Positions 17,438-26,890 of a stretch of 64,000 nt of DNA are shown here, piece after piece. Source of the stretch: Escherichia coli (GTDB lineage: Bacteria > Pseudomonadota > Gammaproteobacteria > Enterobacterales > Enterobacteriaceae). The notes under the pieces are model-generated. The model saw only the letters and a program-made list of their open reading frames with translations. It had not been told where the DNA came from and ran no database searches. The stretch is taken from assembly GCF_011045215.1 (NCBI RefSeq), contig NZ_CP049201.1. One strand, given 5' to 3'. Made by a program: the position numbers and the translations under genes. Numbering within the stretch: the first letter of the stretch is position 1; each line of letters opens with the position of its first letter.

Positions 17438-17929
17438 ATGGCAATTCCAGTTTATCTGTGGCTGAAAGATGATGGCGGTGCAGATATCAAAGGGTCCGTG
17501 GATGTTCAGGACCGTGAGGGCAGCATTGAGGTGGTGGCTCAGGAGCACTGCCTCTACATCCCGACGGATAACAACACCGGTAAGCTGACCGGTACCCGTA
17601 TTCACACACCGTTCCTGTTTACCAAGGAAATTGATTCTTCCAGCCCGTACCTTTACAAGGCCGTGACCACCGGGCAGACCCTGAAGTCTGCTGAATTTAA
17701 GTGGTACAAAATCAATGACGCCGGTCAGGAGGTGGAGTACTTCAATACGAAGCTTGAGAACGTGAAGGTGGTGAAGGTTAATCCGGTCATGCACGACATC
17801 AAGAATCCCACCTACGAGAAGCATAACCACCTTGAACAGGTGGAACTGCGCTACGAGAAAATCACCTGGACCTACAAGGACGGCAACATCATTCATTCCG
17901 ACGCATGGAGTGAACGTACCACCGCGTAA
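17438..17929 (+). CDS. hcp: T6SS tube protein Hcp (TssD)
   Basis: 163 aa; MAIPVYLWLKDDGGADIKGSVDV start is the classic Hcp N-terminus; GGAG RBS. Confidence 0.9.
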   Translation: MAIPVYLWLKDDGGADIKGSVDVQDREGSIEVVAQEHCLYIPTDNNTGKLTGTRIHTPFLFTKEIDSSSPYLYKAVTTGQTLKSAEFKWYKINDAGQEVEYFNTKLENVKVVKVNPVMHDIKNPTYEKHNHLEQVELRYEKITWTYKDGNIIHSDAWSERTTA

Positions 17930-17975: not shown

Positions 17976-18097
17976 TTCAGCATCTGTTGGCGGGTGCTGA
18001 AGAAAAAATTCTCAATCCTGAACACAGACCTGATGCGCCTGGGTTACGGCGAAGGGCGGTAGCGTGCCTGACGGTCTCCTGACAGTGAGTGAATAAC

Positions 18098-20785
18098 ATG
18101 GAAAATTCGGCAGCTCTGTTACGTCGTCTTAATCATTACTGTGCCCGTGCACTGGAAGGCGCAGCCTCCCTTTGCCAGACCCGGGCCCATGCAGAAATCA
18201 CCCCGGAGCACTGGTTACTGAAACTGCTGGAGCAGGGGGAAGGAGACCTTACCGTGCTGGGCCGGCGTTATGGCTGGGATATGGACGCGATATGGCAGTC
18301 GCTGCTCGGCTGGCTGGATAACCAGCCCCGTAGCGTACGCAGTCGCCCGCAGCTTGCGCCGTCCCTGAATGCCCTGCTGAAACAGGCCTGGATGGTGGCC
18401 TCATTACAGGGGGAAGAACATATCCGCAGCGTGCATCTGCTGGGTGCCCTGACGGAACATCCGCACCTGGTTCGCTGTGACGGGCTGTGGCCCCTGCTGA
18501 CACTGAGTCAGAGTCAGTTGCAGCGTCTGTCCCCGCTGCTGGATGCGCAGTCTGATGAGTGTCCGGAGAGATTACAGGATGCAGAGCCTGTGCTGCCTCA
18601 GGGAGACAATGTGACCTTTATCGGGCGCCCCGTCGGTGCGGATACGGCGGGTATACCGTCAGGTGACCTGCCGCCTGTGTTACAGAGTGCGCTGGATAAA
18701 TTCACCCGGGACATCACGGCCAGTGCGAGAGAGGGTAAAATTGACCCGGTATCGGGGCGCGATACGGAAATCCGCCAGATGGTGGATATTCTCTCCCGCC
18801 GCCGCAAGAATAACCCGATTCTGGTGGGGGACCCCGGTGTGGGGAAAACGGCTCTGGTGGAAGGGCTCGCCCTGCGTATTGTGGAAGGTAACGTACCGGA
18901 ATCACTCAGACCCGTCACCCTGCGCACCCTTGACCTCGGCCTGCTGCAGGCCGGTGCCGGCGTGAAGGGGGAATTTGAACAGCGCCTGAAAAACGTGATT
19001 GATGCCGTGCAGCAGTCACCGGCTCCTGTTCTGTTGTTTATAGATGAAGCCCATACCCTTATCGGGGCCGGTAATCAGGCTGGCGGCGCGGATGCGGCGA
19101 ACCTGCTGAAGCCTGCGCTGGCGCGGGGTGAACTGCGCACCATTGCCGCCACCACCTGGTCTGAGTACAAACAATACCTGGAACGTGACGCGGCCCTGGA
19201 GCGGCGTTTTCAGATGGTCAGAGTGGACGAGCCGGATGATGAGACGGCCTGTCTGATGCTACGCTCCCTGAAATCCCGTTATGCGGAACATCATAACGTG
19301 CATATCACCGATGAGGCGGTACGTGCTGCCGTCACACTGTCGCGCCGTTATCTGACAGAACGTCAGTTACCGGACAAGGCCGTTGACCTGCTTGATACCG
19401 CTGCTGCCCGTGTGCGTATGAGCCTCGACACGGTGCCGGAACAGCTGACCCGTATCCGTTCACAGCTCGCCTCCCTCGGTATGGAAAAACAGGCACTGCT
19501 GGAAGATATTGCCGTTGGTCATCAGAATCACGGCGAACGCCTGTCTGCCATTGAGCAGGAAGAGAATGTGCTGATGACAGCACGTGATGACCTGGAGCAG
19601 CAGTACGCCCGGGAGTGCGAACTCACCGGTGAGTTACTTGAAAGCCGCAGCGATATTTCCCGCCAGAGTGAGACACATCACCTGCAGCAGGCACTGCACG
19701 ACATTCAGCAGAATCAGCCCCTGCTCAGTGTGGATGTTGATGTACGCACCGTGGCCGGTGTGGTCGCGGACTGGACCGGGGTGCCGTTATCCTCACTGAT
19801 GAAGGACGAACAGACGGAACTGCTGCATCTGGAAAAGGATATCGGCAGACGGGTGGTCGGACAGGACGTGGCACTGGAATCCATTGCACAGCGTCTGCGT
19901 GCGGCGAAAACGGGTCTGACATCCGGTAACGGCCCCCAGGGGGTGTTCCTGCTGGTTGGCCCCAGTGGTGTGGGAAAAACTGAAACGGCACTGGCACTGG
20001 CAGACGCGATGTACGGCGGCGAAAAATCACTGATTACCATCAATCTGTCGGAATATCAGGAGCCCCATACGGTTTCCCAGCTTAAGGGCTCACCGCCCGG
20101 GTACGTGGGATACGGTCAGGGGGGGATTCTGACGGAGGCTGTGCGTAAACGCCCTTACAGCGTGGTGCTGCTGGATGAAGTGGAAAAGGCCCACCGGGAT
20201 GTGCTGAATCTGTTTTATCAGGTATTTGACCGGGGCTTTATGCGCGACGGCGAGGGGCGTGAAATTGACTTCCGTAATACGGTCATACTGATGACCTCCA
20301 ACCTGGGCAGTGACCTTCTGATGCAGCAACTGAGCGAAAAGCCGGAGACAACGGAATCGGAGCTGCATGAGCTTATCCGTCCACTGCTGCGCGACCACTT
20401 CCAGCCTGCCCTGCTGGCTCGCTTTCAGACCGTGATTTACCGTCCGCTGACACAGTCTGCCATGCGCATCATTGTGGAGATGAAGCTTGCACAGGTCTGT
20501 GAACGCCTGCACTGCCATTATGGACTGAGTACATCGGTTGATGAACGTGTGTACGATGCCCTGACATCAGCCTGCCTGCTGCCGGATACGGGCGCCCGGA
20601 ATGTGGAGAGTCTGCTGAACCAGCAACTGCTGCCGGTACTGAGCCGGCAGTTGCTCAGCTATCTTGCTGCCAGACAGCATCCGACGTACCTGTCTCTGAC
20701 GTGGAATGATGAGGATGGTATTGTGATAGCGTTTGATGGAATCAATAGCGATTATCCGCAGGAAAGCATATATGGACAGTGCTAA
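18098..20785 (+). CDS. clpV: T6SS AAA+ ATPase ClpV (TssH)
   Basis: Two AAA+ modules with Walker A GDPGVGKT and GPSGVGKT, Walker B LLFIDEAH and VVLLDEVEKA, ClpB-like N-domain. Confidence 0.93.
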   Translation: MENSAALLRRLNHYCARALEGAASLCQTRAHAEITPEHWLLKLLEQGEGDLTVLGRRYGWDMDAIWQSLLGWLDNQPRSVRSRPQLAPSLNALLKQAWMVASLQGEEHIRSVHLLGALTEHPHLVRCDGLWPLLTLSQSQLQRLSPLLDAQSDECPERLQDAEPVLPQGDNVTFIGRPVGADTAGIPSGDLPPVLQSALDKFTRDITASAREGKIDPVSGRDTEIRQMVDILSRRRKNNPILVGDPGVGKTALVEGLALRIVEGNVPESLRPVTLRTLDLGLLQAGAGVKGEFEQRLKNVIDAVQQSPAPVLLFIDEAHTLIGAGNQAGGADAANLLKPALARGELRTIAATTWSEYKQYLERDAALERRFQMVRVDEPDDETACLMLRSLKSRYAEHHNVHITDEAVRAAVTLSRRYLTERQLPDKAVDLLDTAAARVRMSLDTVPEQLTRIRSQLASLGMEKQALLEDIAVGHQNHGERLSAIEQEENVLMTARDDLEQQYARECELTGELLESRSDISRQSETHHLQQALHDIQQNQPLLSVDVDVRTVAGVVADWTGVPLSSLMKDEQTELLHLEKDIGRRVVGQDVALESIAQRLRAAKTGLTSGNGPQGVFLLVGPSGVGKTETALALADAMYGGEKSLITINLSEYQEPHTVSQLKGSPPGYVGYGQGGILTEAVRKRPYSVVLLDEVEKAHRDVLNLFYQVFDRGFMRDGEGREIDFRNTVILMTSNLGSDLLMQQLSEKPETTESELHELIRPLLRDHFQPALLARFQTVIYRPLTQSAMRIIVEMKLAQVCERLHCHYGLSTSVDERVYDALTSACLLPDTGARNVESLLNQQLLPVLSRQLLSYLAARQHPTYLSLTWNDEDGIVIAFDGINSDYPQESIYGQC

Positions 20786-21413
20786 AGAAATTGCCCGGGA
20801 TATGCTGGAGTCCGTAAATATTAATGGGGATGGGTTTCTGGGGGCCGTCGGGAAGGGGCTCATATCTTTGCCAGTCAGTCTCGGTTATATGGGATATGAT
20901 TTTACAGATACCGGGCATAGGCGGGAAAACCAGAATGACAAATTCAGAATGGCCAGACTGGTAGAAAAAGGCATTTTCAGCCGTGATATTATTGGGAAAA
21001 TTATCAGTATTTGTCTTGAAGACTTTGTATCCCGGATCAATATGGAAAAAATAGGCTCCATTGTGAAGAACGTTTCAGGAGATCTGGCAGGTAGAATGGC
21101 ATTTGCTGAATTGACCGGGGTTAAACTGGGAGAGGCTCTGGTATCCAGAGGGCTGGCTGCTTTTTTTGCAGGGAGTTTTGCCGGGTTGTTATTATCTGTT
21201 GGCGCAGAGACATCGCGTGCGATTTACACATCCCGTTTTCTGAAAGACAGAAATCCGGTGTTGCATGATAAGCTGAAAGCTCAGGGGGATTTGGATCTTT
21301 TGTACTTCCTTGTTGAAGATATTGTGCGCCCGTTTGAACGAGCCTGTATTGTCGCAGACCGAAATTCGGCTGAGTTTGACCGGATATGCGAATATTTTTT
21401 CGGTGGTTTATGA
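20774..21413 (+). CDS. Hypothetical protein with a Gly/Ala-rich hydrophobic segment (putative membrane-active effector)
   Basis: 213 aa from MDSAKEIARD; segment GLAAFFAGSFAGLLLSVGAET; located between clpV and vgrG; function not recognised. Confidence 0.45.
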
Positions 21414-21637
21414 AGATAAAAAGAACATTACTTATAATGCTTTCCCGATTTATCCGTGGCGCAGGTATGGGGTTAGGTGCGTCGGGTATTGTATTTACAG
21501 TCTGGTTCTTTTTTCTCTCATCTTCTGAATTTAAATATCTGTGGGGAGGGCTCTCTGTTGCGTTATTTTTTGTCGGTTATCTGATGTATCGATTTGCATA
21601 TGCATATATTTACGATGAATGGGATGATTATCAGTAA
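21410..21637 (+). CDS. Small two-TM membrane protein (putative cognate immunity)
   Basis: 75 aa, ATG overlaps the upstream stop (ATGA); two hydrophobic helices GMGLGASGIVFTVWFFFL and LSVALFFVGYLMY. Confidence 0.4.
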   Translation: MKIKRTLLIMLSRFIRGAGMGLGASGIVFTVWFFFLSSSEFKYLWGGLSVALFFVGYLMYRFAYAYIYDEWDDYQ

Positions 21638-21715: not shown

Positions 21716-24238
21716 ATGAGTCTGACAGATACACTTTCAAAAACTATCTCTGTTTCCCTGAATCGTTACCATTTAATTATTCCCTCCTGCCCGTCACCAC
21801 TGGATGTTGAGCATTTCAGCGGCAGGGAGGAGATGAGTCAGACCTATTATTACATCATCAATTTTACCAGTACTGACAACGACCTGGATGCCGGGCTGCT
21901 GCTGCGTAAATCAGCCACATTTACAATGGGTACGGGAGGGCTTAAGGAGCAGGTGAGCCAGAAAGTAGTACATGGTGTCATTACAGATTTTCGCCGTATA
22001 TCGGGCTCCGCCGACCAGGCAAAATACCAGGTGATACTGGAACCATTTATTAAACTACTGGACAGGCAGCATCGTTCTCACCGATTTTTCGTTAACAAAT
22101 CGGTGCCGGAGGTGGTGACAGAGGTTCTCCAGGAGCACGGTCTGAAAGGCTGGGAGTTTGAGTTCCGTCTCAAAAAAACGTATCCGAAGCGTGAACAGAT
22201 TAACCAGTATCAGGAAAGTGACCTGCAATTTATTCAGCGTTTGCTGGCTGAAGTGGGGATTTTTTATTTTTTCACCCTGCAACCGGACACGCAGACGGAA
22301 GTGGTGCATTTTGGTGACAGCCAGGCAGCGCTGACGTTTGATAAGACGCTGGCGATAAACAGTCCGTCCGGAATGAATGATAACAGAGCGGATTCAGTGT
22401 GGGGGCTGAATGTGACGCACAATGTGGCAGAGGCTAGTGTCACCACAAAGGCTTATAACCATCGTGAAGCACAATATCTGTTGCAGTCCGCCCCGGCAGA
22501 CATGACGCATGGTGATGGTGACGGAATTAACTATGGTGAGGTGTACCACTACCATTTCCGTCATCTGGAACGGGGGGATAAAATCGACCCGGTGCCGGAG
22601 ACGGCCAATTTTTATGCCCGCCTTGGTCATGAACGCTATCTGGCGGAGCAGGTACGGATAACCGGTAACAGTACAGACGCCACGCTGGCACCTGCTCAGG
22701 TTCTGACTATCACCGACAGTCTTCCGCCGACGTTGCCTGCGCTGCTGCGCAATCCGGTGTTGCTTACCTGTGTCGGTTTTTCTGCAAGTCGCAAGGATGC
22801 CCTGCAGGTTGTACTGAAGGGCGTTCCTTACAGTGAAGTTATCTGCTGGCGTCCTCCTTTACTGCCCCGTCCGAAAGTTACCGGTACCATGACGGCCCGT
22901 GTGACCAGTGCAAAAGAAGGGGATATCTACGCCTGGCAGGATGCATCAGGTATGTACCGGGTGAAATTTGATGCTGACCGTGATGATAAAAATCCAGGAC
23001 AGGAAAGTATGCCGGTACGTCTGGCCAAACCCTACAGTGGTGATGCTTATGGTTTTCATTTTCCGCTGATTCAGGGAACGGAAGTGGCCATTGCTTTTGA
23101 GGAAGGTGATCCGGATCGTCCCTATATTGCGCATGCCCTGCATGATTCACGTCATGTTGATCACGTTACCGATAAGAACGGTACGCGCAATGTTATCCGT
23201 ACGCCAGCAAATAACAAATTGCGAATGGAGGATAAGCGCGGCGAGGAGCATATCAAGCTCAGTACCGAGTATGGCGGTAAGACACAACTTAATCTTGGCC
23301 ATAACGTTGATGAGGAGCGGGTGGTTAGAGGAGAAGGTGCAGAGTTGCGCACTGATGATTGGGTGGCAATTCGGGGGGGGAAAGGGATTTTATTAAGTGC
23401 CGACGCTCAACCAAATGCTGATGGTGTAATGCTTGATATGCATAAAGCTATACAGCAGTTGGAACATGCTCTTGCTCTTGCAAAAAGCCTCGGCAAAGCA
23501 GCTGAGACAGCAAAAGCAACTTCGGCAGATTCAGATAGCCAGTCTATTTTGAAAAGTGCGCTGTCCGGGTTGCAAAAACCAGGGATATTAGCACATTCAC
23601 CTATGGGAATTGGTGTGGTAACTCCAGAAGCAGTACGGATTGCTTCTGGAAATCAGAGTGTAGGAATAGTTTCTGGTCGTAATACGGATATTACTGCAGC
23701 TCAGTCAGTAACTGTTGCGGCATCGAATTCTGTCAGCCTATTTGCGCAAAGTGCGGGGATGCAACTTTTTGCAGGGCAGGGCAAAGTGGATGTGCAGGCT
23801 CAGGGAGATGCGCTGAATCTCCAGGCACTAAAGGACGTCACAGTTACTAGTAATCGTGGTAGTGTAACGTTAAGCGCTAGTAAGGAGTTAACTCTTGTTT
23901 GTAATGGTGCTTACATCAAGATCAGTGGCGGAAATATCGAACTTGGATGTCCAGGTAATATTCTGCTTAAATCTGCGAATGTGCAAAAAATGAGAGCGGC
24001 AAACTTAAATCTATCTCCTCAGGTGTTGCCTAAAGGATTCAAGGGAGGATTTACAATAACTAATCAGGATACGGGGGAAGTGATGCCGTACATCCTTTAT
24101 AAGATAACTACCGCAGAAGGTGATGTTTATTCAGGTACAACAGATAAACTTGGCAATACCATGCCAATTTATACAGCGTCGCCATCATTAATGAAAATTG
24201 AGTTTCCTCTAAGCAGTGAACAAGGAGGGGCATTATGA
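21716..24238 (+). CDS. vgrG: T6SS spike protein VgrG (TssI) with C-terminal extension
   Basis: 840 aa, longer than a minimal VgrG; gp27/gp5-like N-terminal region then repeat-rich beta-prism region and an extra C-terminal tail of about 100 aa. Confidence 0.9.
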   Translation: MSLTDTLSKTISVSLNRYHLIIPSCPSPLDVEHFSGREEMSQTYYYIINFTSTDNDLDAGLLLRKSATFTMGTGGLKEQVSQKVVHGVITDFRRISGSADQAKYQVILEPFIKLLDRQHRSHRFFVNKSVPEVVTEVLQEHGLKGWEFEFRLKKTYPKREQINQYQESDLQFIQRLLAEVGIFYFFTLQPDTQTEVVHFGDSQAALTFDKTLAINSPSGMNDNRADSVWGLNVTHNVAEASVTTKAYNHREAQYLLQSAPADMTHGDGDGINYGEVYHYHFRHLERGDKIDPVPETANFYARLGHERYLAEQVRITGNSTDATLAPAQVLTITDSLPPTLPALLRNPVLLTCVGFSASRKDALQVVLKGVPYSEVICWRPPLLPRPKVTGTMTARVTSAKEGDIYAWQDASGMYRVKFDADRDDKNPGQESMPVRLAKPYSGDAYGFHFPLIQGTEVAIAFEEGDPDRPYIAHALHDSRHVDHVTDKNGTRNVIRTPANNKLRMEDKRGEEHIKLSTEYGGKTQLNLGHNVDEERVVRGEGAELRTDDWVAIRGGKGILLSADAQPNADGVMLDMHKAIQQLEHALALAKSLGKAAETAKATSADSDSQSILKSALSGLQKPGILAHSPMGIGVVTPEAVRIASGNQSVGIVSGRNTDITAAQSVTVAASNSVSLFAQSAGMQLFAGQGKVDVQAQGDALNLQALKDVTVTSNRGSVTLSASKELTLVCNGAYIKISGGNIELGCPGNILLKSANVQKMRAANLNLSPQVLPKGFKGGFTITNQDTGEVMPYILYKITTAEGDVYSGTTDKLGNTMPIYTASPSLMKIEFPLSSEQGGAL

Positions 24239-26145
24239 GTGAGTCAAAAACATCTGCTGTAGGAACATTCAGTAAAGCCCATGCTCCTGCGCAAAAGAAA
24301 TGCTGGATTGAAATTCAGCTGGTTGATGAGAATGATAACGCTGTAGCTAATATGCCATGGCGAGGGGAGAATGAAGCTACTCGTGATAAAGTTATTGAGC
24401 CTTATAGCGGAGTTACTGATTTAGATGGTATTTTGAGGATCGATGATTTGCTTCACCCAGATCTTACTCTTTTTGTTGAAGCTCAACCACTTGTTGACGA
24501 AATGGAGCATAGACCTTTAAGTATAGAGAGAACATGTTCCTATTCGATGAAAAATTCACCAGTAACTGTTGATAAGCGGACCAATAATATTTGTTATTAT
24601 GTAGTTGTCGGTCAATTGTGCGATAAAGCTCCAAGTATACCTGGTTGGAATAGTAAAGAATTACCTGCCTTTCATTTTCCCGATCGTGATTTTTCAGGAC
24701 TAACTATTTCAAATGCGTACTTTAATTCGAGAGTTATAGTAAAAGTATGTCCATTTAGAGCATGGAATTTACTTCTTCATCATGCAAAGGATTACTCTAT
24801 TGTAAATGCGTTTAATTTGGGGCTTTTAGCTGAATTTGTTTATTCTGACAAAGAAAAAATCCTGTCCTTTTTTAATGAGCAGTGTCAAGATTTATCTAAA
24901 GTTCCTAGTATGCTCTATGAAACCATTTCTGTTGATGTGCCGTTTAGAGAACGTTATGTAAATCCAGTATTTCTTGATACTACAGAAGGTGATTTTGGAG
25001 AAGGGGGGACCCAGCTTTTCTTCGTCAGCAATTTGACTAAGCTATTAGTCGGCTGGAGAGGTACTGAGCCAGATAAACTAGCAGATCTTATTACTGATGG
25101 GGCATTTAGGCCGGTGCCATGTCCAGATATAGTGCCATCAGGTCATTGTCACAAAGGTTTTTTAGATGCATTTAATTTAGTTGGAAAAAAATTCAGGGAC
25201 CAACTCAAACAAATTCAGAGTTTGTCGAGTGGCCGTGAATTATTTATTGCAGGACATAGCTTAGGCGGTGCATTAGCTCTAATTCATGCTGCTGTGTTGC
25301 GTGATTATCAACCAATAATCTATACATATGGAATGCCGCGAGTATTTACGGCATCGGCTATTAATAAAATTAAAAATATTTCTCACTATAGACACGTTAA
25401 TGATTCAGATTCAGTAACAAGCATTCCACCGGAGTTAGAGTTAGATAATAAACTCTATGATCTTTGGGGACCTTACGGTGTTGTCTATGGATTTGTTGGT
25501 TCTGTTTTGGCTATGGGAATTCAAGGCGCAGGAATAAAGTTTGGTGATCCTTATTGGCACCATGGTAGCACTGTCTGCTTTTTTAAGGTTGAGCAGTCTA
25601 TTGTTAAGCGTTTAAAAAGAATTATGCCGCTTATAGGCATGGATGTTAAAAAACCATATATATCAATAAGGGAGATCTCATTTGACAAATGTAAGCTATA
25701 TCTTGTTCCAGATCTTAATGAGAAAATGTTTTGCGCTACAGCAGAGGAGCAAAATAATTTTGTGAAAAGTTTGTCCCCTGAAAGTTTAAGATGCTATTTT
25801 CCTAAAAATAGTAATCCAGAACTTGATTCTTGGACAAATCCAATAAATCATTCCATGTCAAACAAATACATGCCTTTTATTAATAATGAGCTGATTGAGC
25901 TAACAGATCCTGAGCGACCAATGGAAAGAAAACTGAATAGGAAAAAATTTTCAATTGCTGTTGATAATGCAGCGAAGTTAACAGAAAGCACTTCGAAGCA
26001 TGAGCTGGAAAGAAATAAGAACTTTTTATTGTTGCAAGATATGTTGCCAAAAACATTAGAAATATCAAAGTCAGAAAATAACTGGGTGAATGCATTGATT
26101 AGATTTAAAAATAGTGCAAAGGAAGAGTATGAGAATATTAATTAA
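24235..26145 (+). CDS. Putative T6SS phospholipase/lipase effector (class-3 lipase-like, GHSLGG nucleophile motif)
   Basis: 636 aa; start overlaps the vgrG stop; GHSLGGALALIHAA at about 25252..25290 is a GxSxG alpha/beta-hydrolase nucleophile elbow; AT-rich relative to the core genes. Confidence 0.75.
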   Translation: MSESKTSAVGTFSKAHAPAQKKCWIEIQLVDENDNAVANMPWRGENEATRDKVIEPYSGVTDLDGILRIDDLLHPDLTLFVEAQPLVDEMEHRPLSIERTCSYSMKNSPVTVDKRTNNICYYVVVGQLCDKAPSIPGWNSKELPAFHFPDRDFSGLTISNAYFNSRVIVKVCPFRAWNLLLHHAKDYSIVNAFNLGLLAEFVYSDKEKILSFFNEQCQDLSKVPSMLYETISVDVPFRERYVNPVFLDTTEGDFGEGGTQLFFVSNLTKLLVGWRGTEPDKLADLITDGAFRPVPCPDIVPSGHCHKGFLDAFNLVGKKFRDQLKQIQSLSSGRELFIAGHSLGGALALIHAAVLRDYQPIIYTYGMPRVFTASAINKIKNISHYRHVNDSDSVTSIPPELELDNKLYDLWGPYGVVYGFVGSVLAMGIQGAGIKFGDPYWHHGSTVCFFKVEQSIVKRLKRIMPLIGMDVKKPYISIREISFDKCKLYLVPDLNEKMFCATAEEQNNFVKSLSPESLRCYFPKNSNPELDSWTNPINHSMSNKYMPFINNELIELTDPERPMERKLNRKKFSIAVDNAAKLTESTSKHELERNKNFLLLQDMLPKTLEISKSENNWVNALIRFKNSAKEEYENIN

Positions 26146-26890
26146 GAACATGATGTACATCTTTTCTTTTTTTTTGTTAGGGTGTGATAAAAATGAGTCA
26201 TTGAATCCTCCATCCAATGGTGAAATGGTTTCTGTAATTGCAAAGATGCCAGCGGGCAGTAAAATATTGCCATTGGAAATTATGTATCGTTCAACCACTT
26301 GCTTGAAGAGTCGTAAAGATTCAAATGGAGGTATAGTAAAAGAACCAGGATATTATTTTGTCAAGAAAGAATTCAATTCTGTATCAGACGATAATATATT
26401 TAATCTGAAGATTCCACGTGATGGTGGAGGGCAGTGTAACTGGGAGTTAAGCAACATAACGTTAGGGTTCTATTTAAAAGAACTTCCTTCAGGTAAAGAT
26501 GAAAAGAGTGAGAATATACCAATTAAAGAAATTATTGTGTTTGATGATAATTCACCTCAGCGGCTAAGTGGAACATACGAGATTATTAATGGAGATGTTA
26601 CACTGAAAGAGAATTACTTTCCTTTAATTACAAAGCGCAGGAATAGCAATACCTTATTGGAATATTCCATTGTCAGGTCTTCACCAGATGTGATTTATAA
26701 ATCAACATCGGCAAAAAAAGTTATTTTTGAACCAAGGATTCATTTTTCAAAAGTTTTACGCGCGACAGAACCGACAGGGCAAAAAGTCGGAGTGTATATG
26801 TCGGTGTTGTATCCTGATGGAACTATCGAGAATGGGCCATATTTCCCTAATTACAAAAAACTTCAGTTCCTTGAGAGAGGTAATGATTGA
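26129..26890 (+). CDS. Lipoprotein, putative immunity protein for the lipase effector
   Basis: Signal peptide with lipobox MRILIKNMMYIFSFFLLGC; overlaps the effector 3-prime end; same low GC. Confidence 0.6.
   Translation: MRILIKNMMYIFSFFLLGCDKNESLNPPSNGEMVSVIAKMPAGSKILPLEIMYRSTTCLKSRKDSNGGIVKEPGYYFVKKEFNSVSDDNIFNLKIPRDGGGQCNWELSNITLGFYLKELPSGKDEKSENIPIKEIIVFDDNSPQRLSGTYEIINGDVTLKENYFPLITKRRNSNTLLEYSIVRSSPDVIYKSTSAKKVIFEPRIHFSKVLRATEPTGQKVGVYMSVLYPDGTIENGPYFPNYKKLQFLERGND

Follow-up and report, generated by a model that had tools for sequence, protein, structure and literature searches.

A 64,000-nucleotide stretch of Escherichia coli DNA (contig NZ_CP049201.1 of assembly GCF_011045215.1; hereafter the window) contains a type VI secretion system (T6SS) cluster of the T6SS-1 type, which resembles Sci-1 of enteroaggregative E. 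coli (EAEC). The slot between its tssH (clpV) and vgrG genes is filled by two open reading frames (ORFs), here called ORF-A and ORF-B, and these very probably form an effector-immunity pair of the Ssp6/Sip6 type, carried as cargo in the cluster. The pair is not new: it is the E. coli copy of a family that is already known and was characterised in Serratia marcescens (Mariano et al., 2019, Nat Commun 10:5484; PMC6889166). The original prediction, made from the sequence alone, saw here a toxin-immunity pair in a cargo slot, with a membrane-targeting and probably Hcp-loaded effector, and the homology to Ssp6/Sip6 suggests that this was the right kind of element. It also held that the effector may be uncharacterised, which does not hold, as RefSeq already uses the Ssp6 name. 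What was observed here is the family membership of both proteins, the gene architecture, the cargo-like comparative behavior of the pair and a predicted helical fold.

Relationship to Ssp6 and Sip6

A word-indexed search with ORF-A returns 186 homologues at 50-98% identity, and an exhaustive hidden Markov model (HMM) search of 1.84 billion proteins gives 154 representative clusters. The family is compact, made up of proteins of ~210-215 amino acids (aa) from Enterobacterales. Its S. marcescens member P0356 (215 aa) is 45% identical to ORF-A over 208 aa (E 5e-62) and fits all of the published Ssp6 identifiers: a 648-nt gene, no T6SS genes nearby, and a 204-bp ORF overlapping by 4 nt. ORF-B in turn aligns with the 67-aa ORF downstream of the P0356 gene across both transmembrane (TM) helices (BLASTP 35% over 54 aa, E 2e-9), and the hhalign probability for these two is 96.7% (E 3e-10), although composition adds to both scores because the proteins are short and hydrophobic. 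Other published members are recovered as well. In Yersinia aleksiciae 159, gene NZ_CP011975.1 1174387-1175025 occupies the clpV-vgrG slot (locus L024) and shares 56% identity with ORF-A across 213 aa; its coordinates, stop codon included, are those of an entry in Supplementary Data 1 of Mariano et al. (314.6 bits), where a protein counted as a family member if it scored 20 bits or more in HMMER against a curated alignment of Ssp6. Protein P0012 of Serratia PRI-2C is 71% identical to ORF-A, and its strain name and 612-nt gene length match another entry of the same list. There is no E. coli entry in the Mariano et al. table of complete genomes, and their Discussion mentions homologues in draft E. 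coli genomes; family members are described both inside T6SS clusters and beside orphan hcp genes (PMC6889166). Finally, in E. coli MEW, the most recently annotated carrier, RefSeq gives the 98.4%-identical gene the product name “Ssp6 family T6SS pore-forming effector.”

The E. coli pair thus has an effector homologous to Ssp6, a downstream two-TM ORF related to Sip6, and a predicted alpha-helical effector, and part of its family is linked to T6SS genes or hcp. Like their Serratia counterparts, the two proteins are small (effector 213 versus 215 aa, immunity protein 75 versus 67 aa), start and stop of their genes overlap by 4 nt, and annotation frequently passes over the immunity ORF. This 4-nt overlap recurs in an Enterobacter locus (L002), in S. 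marcescens (L049) and in a distant member of the family (L044). The settings differ. The ssp6 gene lies away from T6SS genes, beside an integrase, and the in-cluster example of E. cloacae EcWSU1 lies between tssC and hcp (PMC6889166), whereas the E. coli pair sits between clpV and vgrG. Unlike Sip6, ORF-B carries an additional conserved acidic and aromatic C-terminal tail, IYDEWDDY.

The surroundings are known from the RefSeq annotation of DNA that is 98-100% identical to the window, which names tssB, tssC, tssK, tssL, an OmpA-family tagL, hcp, tssH/clpV, two hypothetical genes and vgrG. The position between clpV and vgrG that was first proposed is therefore confirmed by the flanks. The features of the region are these:

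17438..17929, + strand: hcp (context); protein 100% identical to the RefSeq-annotated hcp of locus L001; likely effector carrier
18089..20785, + strand: tssH/clpV (context); bounds the cargo slot upstream, with its stop codon at 20783-20785
20760..20766, + strand: Shine-Dalgarno-like AGGAAAG within the 3' end of tssH; its AGGA core ends 8 nt 5' of the ORF-A ATG; function presumed
20772..21413, + strand: ORF-A, ssp6-like effector gene; 213 aa plus stop, ATG at 20772
21150..21206, + strand: hydrophobic segment, ORF-A residues 127-145; candidate membrane-inserting hairpin
21410..21413, + strand: ATGA start/stop overlap of ORF-A and ORF-B (translational coupling), read from the sequence
21410..21637, + strand: ORF-B, sip6-like immunity gene; 75 aa plus stop
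21716..24238, + strand: vgrG (context); bounds the cargo slot downstream

The pair lies 2.8 kb downstream from hcp. The reading frame of ORF-A is open from 20733, and the conserved ATG at 20772 overlaps the end of tssH by 14 nt; the MDSAK sequence that follows from this start is nearly invariant in 35 homologues. The length and end originally given for the 213-aa ORF stand, while its start moves two bases upstream from 20774. The ATGA overlap with a 75-aa two-TM ORF is exactly as had been claimed, by ORF check and hydropathy. Published starts for the ORF-B protein disagree, with GenBank and RefSeq giving 56, 61, 66 or 75 aa. The M-x-I/V-K/R-R start is kept in 19 partner proteins, and the 75-aa form is favored because of the conserved N-terminus (M-x-I-K-R) and the ATGA overlap. 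GC content is 0.55-0.58 in the core genes, 0.45 in ORF-A and 0.37 in ORF-B. On this sequence evidence ORF-A and ORF-B are real genes rather than chance ORFs, because of the homologues and clusters counted above and because a partner ORF adjoins in nearly all of the loci surveyed below.

Hydropathy and structure prediction point to a helical effector with a candidate membrane-inserting center. Residues 127-145 of ORF-A form a strongly hydrophobic 19-mer (Kyte-Doolittle mean 1.77; family average 1.63), which covers the Gly/Ala-rich stretch GLAAFF...GAET noticed at the outset, and a second, weaker hydrophobic segment spans residues 22-40. A family alignment of 35 sequences has 31 invariant positions, including the motifs GAExSRAIYTSR and DLDLLYFLVED. 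The AlphaFold2 model built from this alignment is all-alpha, with 11 helices and no strands (predicted local distance difference test score 75, predicted template modeling score 0.75); its confidence is low in both hydrophobic regions, with a low-confidence loop at 136-142. The 127-145 segment straddles the point where predicted helices 119-135 and 140-160 meet, and the helix pair around 119-160 is a candidate membrane-inserting element. A structure prediction and pore-fold search had been proposed for ORF-A. Foldseek against AFDB50 matches the all-alpha model to uncharacterised family members only, and no relative with a solved structure was found. In ORF-B, two hydrophobic segments (~18-36 and 41-62) follow a +5 N-terminus and precede an acidic C-tail, in which Y-D-E-W-D-D-Y is conserved across the alignment of 19 partners.

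The pair is present in 35 of 5,426 complete E. coli genomes (~0.6%), many of them Shiga toxin-producing E. coli (STEC) or animal isolates, and all of these carry the two ORFs intact, with identities of 98.4% or higher. It had been thought unannotated. This is wrong for ORF-A, which is annotated in all 35 RefSeq carriers (as “hypothetical protein” except for the single Ssp6 label), and right in most cases for ORF-B, which is annotated in 14 and absent from 21.

The clpV-vgrG slot and relatives elsewhere

A genome scan with close alignment, limited to one genome per species, gives 29 loci, onto which the window's proteins were mapped. An ORF-B homologue adjoins the ORF-A homologue in 27 of them. 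The order tssK-tssL-tagL-hcp-clpV-A-B-vgrG is kept in ~20 species-level loci (Enterobacter, Yersinia, Erwinia, Pantoea, Citrobacter and others), while the cargo after vgrG varies. ORF-B homologues are 30-47% identical where the ORF-A homologues are 49-64% identical, and tandem ORF-B paralogues occur in 2-3 copies in 8 loci. Pairs also lie away from any T6SS gene (L028, L031, L033 and L035), and one is found beside a clpV remnant (L009).

The tandem arrays, in which several Sip6-like genes stand behind a single ssp6-like gene, are seen in Yersinia, Enterobacter, Erwinia and Chimaeribacter (L004/L005 6636-7105; L013, L014, L015, L018 and L024; L016 819-1610). In Y. aleksiciae (L024), the first tandem copy is frameshifted. 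The original description of the family reports one small downstream ORF per locus, and arrays are absent from it (PMC6889166). An opposite arrangement occurs in Klebsiella pneumoniae. In strain ATCC 13883 (L032 6294-6796) the toxin is cut to its last 93 residues and followed by an intact 75-aa homologue that is 73% identical to ORF-B, beside a tRNA-like sequence. Such orphan immunity genes behind the last ~70-93 toxin codons recur in several K. pneumoniae records (plasmid and chromosome matches H22-H25), and some plasmid and chromosome matches cover only toxin residues 143-213.

Within E. coli the slot itself changes. It is empty in strain SW070919 (L040), where tssH abuts vgrG, and another module fills it in 35 genomes, among them EAEC 042 and 55989, made of a 188-aa protein and a putative T6SS immunity periplasmic lipoprotein (NF045617). 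The flanks of these sister clusters with an empty or replaced slot are ~90% identical to the window. The alternative module lies at L041 6315-7417 in E. coli BEC1-S17-ESBL-09 and at NC_017626.1 4862009-4863079 in EAEC 042. Its 188-aa protein has no NCBIfam match, and some genomes label the gene “type IV secretion protein Rhs.” As a preprint has EC042_4531 follow clpV in EAEC 042, the pair itself was considered as EC042_4531/4532; this was rejected, as the 042 slot carries the other module. That module is presumably EC042_4531/4532, and from its sequence it looks like an uncharacterised effector-immunity pair. Searched for a second effector, EAEC papers state only that Tle1 secures the EAEC T6SS-1's antibacterial activity, a statement that has no bearing on the E. 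coli pair because EAEC 042 is without it. Both variants occur in E. coli STEC313 (NZ_CP041433.1), with the Ssp6-like pair at 2242146-2242996 and the 188-aa/lipoprotein module at 828499-829569; since they stand at two chromosomal sites, this strain has two T6SS-1-type clusters. In Enterobacteriaceae bacterium 89, a 4.5-kb insertion (L019 3388-7785) separates clpV from the ssp6-like gene. A ~197-aa protein is encoded there twice, both times with small lipobox proteins behind it, together with a 238-aa N-terminal fragment of vgrG, and the insertion looks like extra effector-immunity modules stacked in the slot.

Family members are also found on 33 plasmid records. On pEP2.6, a 2,590-bp ColE1-type plasmid of Erwinia pyrifoliae (L037), the toxin gene (3-644) and a convergent two-TM ORF (680-886, - strand) are the sole cargo. 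On the mobilisable 5,384-bp Serratia plasmid pJSRIV004_2 (L038), an hcp gene ends at 347, the effector gene occupies 349-1020, and a convergent two-TM ORF lies at 1017-1265 (- strand). This hcp is complete and matches TIGR03344 (177 bits, cut-off 58.9); it crosses the record origin and is unannotated in the PLSDB table. Small ColE1-type/MOBP plasmids with an Ssp6-like gene as main cargo include L039 (6149-6799). Judging from these sequence comparisons, the pair is exchangeable effector-immunity cargo rather than machinery, because of the variable slot, the immunity arrays and fast divergence of ORF-B, the non-T6SS and plasmid contexts, and the drop in GC content.

Downstream from vgrG, the genes in 24235-26890 of the window differ from the Tle1/Tli1 genes of EAEC. 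They encode a 636-aa protein, named “lipase family protein” by RefSeq in an identical genome, and a 258-aa protein, neither of which has an NCBIfam match. Their GC content is 0.35-0.36 and their GC at third codon positions 0.27-0.32, as compared with the core T6SS values given above.

The exhaustive HMM search also gave longer proteins in which the Ssp6-like region is C-terminal. In this distant group, two proteins have an N-terminal eCIS_core domain (formerly DUF4157), one of them with a C-terminal LysM domain as well, and another has an N-terminal PG_binding_1 domain. The members are:

P0288, L006 1822-3195: Ssp6-like C-terminal domain; no adjacent small two-TM ORF called
P0294, L043 6001-7752: Ssp6-like C-terminal domain; adjacent small two-TM ORF
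P0271, L044 6001-7035: Ssp6-like C-terminal domain; adjacent small two-TM ORF
P0274, L045 6001-7047: Ssp6-like C-terminal domain; adjacent small two-TM ORF

Their contigs are metagenomic, have 59-75% GC, look non-enterobacterial and are without T6SS genes; one relative lies beside genes with PSCyt2/PSD1 domains. There are no structural genes of an extracellular contractile injection system (eCIS) around the eCIS_core-fused relatives, on contigs that are short. Compared with the enterobacterial family, the group scores an hhalign probability of 99.4% (E 1.7e-21, 186 columns), a test that is not fully independent because the group was picked by the same family's HMM. The chances are about even that the Ssp6-like domain and an adjacent two-TM protector make up a mobile toxin cassette that extends beyond Enterobacterales and beyond T6SS.

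Weighing the alternatives

Several points count against an Ssp6/Sip6-type weapon. The RefSeq name rests on evidence that is not directly reproduced here, because no NCBIfam or Pfam-A model matches ORF-A; in scans with Pfam-A and NCBIfam (release 20), no model matches ORF-A, ORF-B or 78 relatives as an Ssp6-type family. P0356 is taken as Ssp6 from its organism, gene lengths, overlap and context, without an accession match. At 45% identity, ORF-A could depart from Ssp6 in ion selectivity, in potency and in target range, and the roles assigned to the E. coli proteins are extended to them by homology. The immunity partner was predicted to be in the inner membrane. Its two TM segments agree with this, but “inner” is unsafe: Sip6, the one homologue tested, fractionated with the outer membrane, to its authors' surprise (PMC6889166). 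Finally, the Serratia paralogue SMDB11_0810 is not detectably expressed or delivered and has residual toxicity, while its partner SMDB11_0809 is a working immunity protein (PMC6889166); a family member can therefore be intact without serving as an active weapon. This precedent, together with the immunity-only remnants of K. pneumoniae and of matches limited to the end of the toxin, suggests that the E. coli pair could be silent or weak, kept mainly as immunity against Ssp6-armed neighbors and with little killing by this E. coli. Such a role is unlikely, as both ORFs are intact and nearly identical in all of the E. coli carriers and are translationally coupled within the tssH-vgrG operon behind a good Shine-Dalgarno sequence. 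ORF-A also holds all of the family-invariant residues, though it does so by definition, as the first row of the 35-sequence alignment. An alternative that departs further from Ssp6 is that the pair would be a structural or accessory (Tag-type) component of a T6SS subtype, not a toxin and its antidote. The conserved order around clpV, which persists in ~20 species-level loci despite changing cargo after vgrG, is what one would expect of it. A core or accessory component should occur in every cluster of its subtype and nowhere beyond T6SS loci, and the family shows neither pattern: sister E. coli clusters lack the pair or carry the other module (L040, L041 and the 35 genomes including EAEC 042), and relatives lie far from T6SS genes, on a 2.6-kb plasmid, or joined to eCIS_core on contigs that lack T6SS genes. 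Homologues found solely as structural accessories, without a small membrane partner, had been named as the outcome that would tell against a toxin-immunity pair; the partner is present in nearly all of the loci, is tandemly duplicated and diverges fast, and the Serratia homologue is a secreted toxin (PMC6889166). An accessory role is accordingly improbable in the extreme.

Two further explanations keep the toxin and change its nature. ORF-A might be a DUF4225-type T6SS toxin, which would lyse from the periplasm by that family's mechanism and not through ion-selective pores; this would be compatible with an Ssp6/Sip6-type pair if the two families are related. The DUF4225/Imm4225 pair of Vibrio parahaemolyticus (Jana et al., 2022, mSystems; PMC9765294) has like genetics, with an hcp-linked small effector of ~240 aa and, downstream, an unannotated ORF for the small multi-TM protein that neutralises it. 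Its effector is toxic in the periplasm only, as for Ssp6, and also occurs in polymorphic toxins of several secretion systems. In contrast to Ssp6, which depolarises without permeabilising, the Vibrio toxin lyses, and Imm4225 has 3 predicted TM segments in 89 aa (PMC9765294). The immunity gene and hcp linkage do not discriminate, because the Ssp6 family has the same architecture. UniProt does use “DUF4225 domain-containing protein” for P0075 (A0A6M8UIW0), P0327 (A0ABD6MFF1) and the Foldseek target A0AAW6X4A6, but such names may be machine-predicted. Pfam PF13988 matches none of 35 close and 24 distant members at E<=0.1 (59 scanned singly), and leaves ORF-A, P0075 and the hcp-linked plasmid protein unmatched even at E<=10. 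Moreover, the Prokaryotic Genome Annotation Pipeline gives the name to 0 of 33 plasmid-borne members, and in the Vibrio paper the work on Ssp6 is cited solely within a general enumeration of effector types, without a link between the families (PMC9765294). A DUF4225-type mechanism thus appears very unlikely. ORF-A could also be a structural relative of the colicin pore-forming domain, a bundle of ~200 aa and 10 helices with a buried hydrophobic hairpin and a small membrane immunity protein. Size, the all-helical prediction and the predicted central hydrophobic helix pair are alike, and a small two-TM gene is convergent with the toxin gene on pEP2.6, on the Serratia plasmid and in L031/L033. 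The convergent orientation is typical of the immunity genes of pore-forming colicins. At the level of fold, however, the AlphaFold2 model gives no support: no similarity in fold or sequence to the channel domains of colicins A, E1 and Ia (a ten-helix globin-like bundle) was found, which makes structural kinship scarcely credible. The likeness to these colicins is one of functional analogy, in that a helical channel domain acts in the inner membrane and a small membrane protein blocks it, and of convergent gene arrangement in some plasmid and orphan Ssp6-like copies; unlike the colicins, ORF-A lacks receptor-binding and translocation domains as well as a lysis gene, and would be delivered by the T6SS.

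Proposed mechanism and implications

For an Ssp6/Sip6-type pair, a mechanism can be proposed from the Serratia prototype. In S. marcescens Db10, secretion of Ssp6 depends on the T6SS; the protein is toxic when in the periplasm and only mildly so when in the cytoplasm, and it depolarises the inner membrane without entry of propidium iodide, while raising the permeability of the outer membrane (PMC6889166). Ssp6 assembles into oligomers and opens cation-selective pores in planar bilayers, and Sip6 co-immunoprecipitates with it and neutralises it (PMC6889166). Ssp6 alone kills E. coli, and it is inactive against Pseudomonas fluorescens (bioRxiv 2024.11.27.625605). Secretion, periplasmic action, pore formation, depolarisation, immunity binding and Hcp dependence are carried over from S. 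marcescens Ssp6 to the E. coli pair by homology. The 23-kDa, all-helical ORF-A protein would be loaded into the Hcp tube. This Hcp dependence is inferred because of the Ssp6 literature, in which earlier data are consistent with Hcp-dependent delivery (PMC6889166), and because of the plasmid module of hcp and an ssp6-like gene. The T6SS would fire the protein into the periplasm of neighboring Enterobacterales, where it would insert into the inner membrane, probably through the hydrophobic helix pair at ~119-160, and oligomerise into a cation-selective pore. The membrane potential would then be lost and growth would stop, without gross lysis. As ORF-B is translationally coupled, it would be made whenever the toxin is made, and its two-TM membrane protein would bind the toxin directly, thus protecting the producer and its kin.

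Such a pair would join other T6SS-delivered helical depolarising toxins with integral-membrane immunity proteins, such as Ssp4/Sip4, VasX, Tse4 and Tme1 (bioRxiv 10.1101/2024.11.27.625605). Ssp4 differs from it in being sequence-unrelated, according to its authors, and in having a broader target range and distribution (bioRxiv 10.1101/2024.11.27.625605).

For the window, the finding gives a function to two “hypothetical” T6SS-1 genes, transferred from the well-studied Serratia pair, and little else changes. Immunity genes of the ORF-B type are missing from 21 of 35 RefSeq annotations, so annotation pipelines could improve here. The literature states that Ssp6 homologues are restricted to Enterobacterales (bioRxiv 2024.11.27.625605); if the distant relatives are true members, the family is restricted neither to Enterobacterales nor to T6SS delivery, contrary to this statement. 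Should DUF4225 prove to be related to Ssp6, there would be a mechanism for that toxin family too. The clpV-vgrG slot is an exchangeable cargo site, in which the model strain EAEC 042 holds a different uncharacterised module. Carriers of the Ssp6/Sip6-type pair would add a second weapon, one that depolarises membranes, to the phospholipase-type cargo encoded after vgrG, and this would bear on competition in the gut within Enterobacterales.

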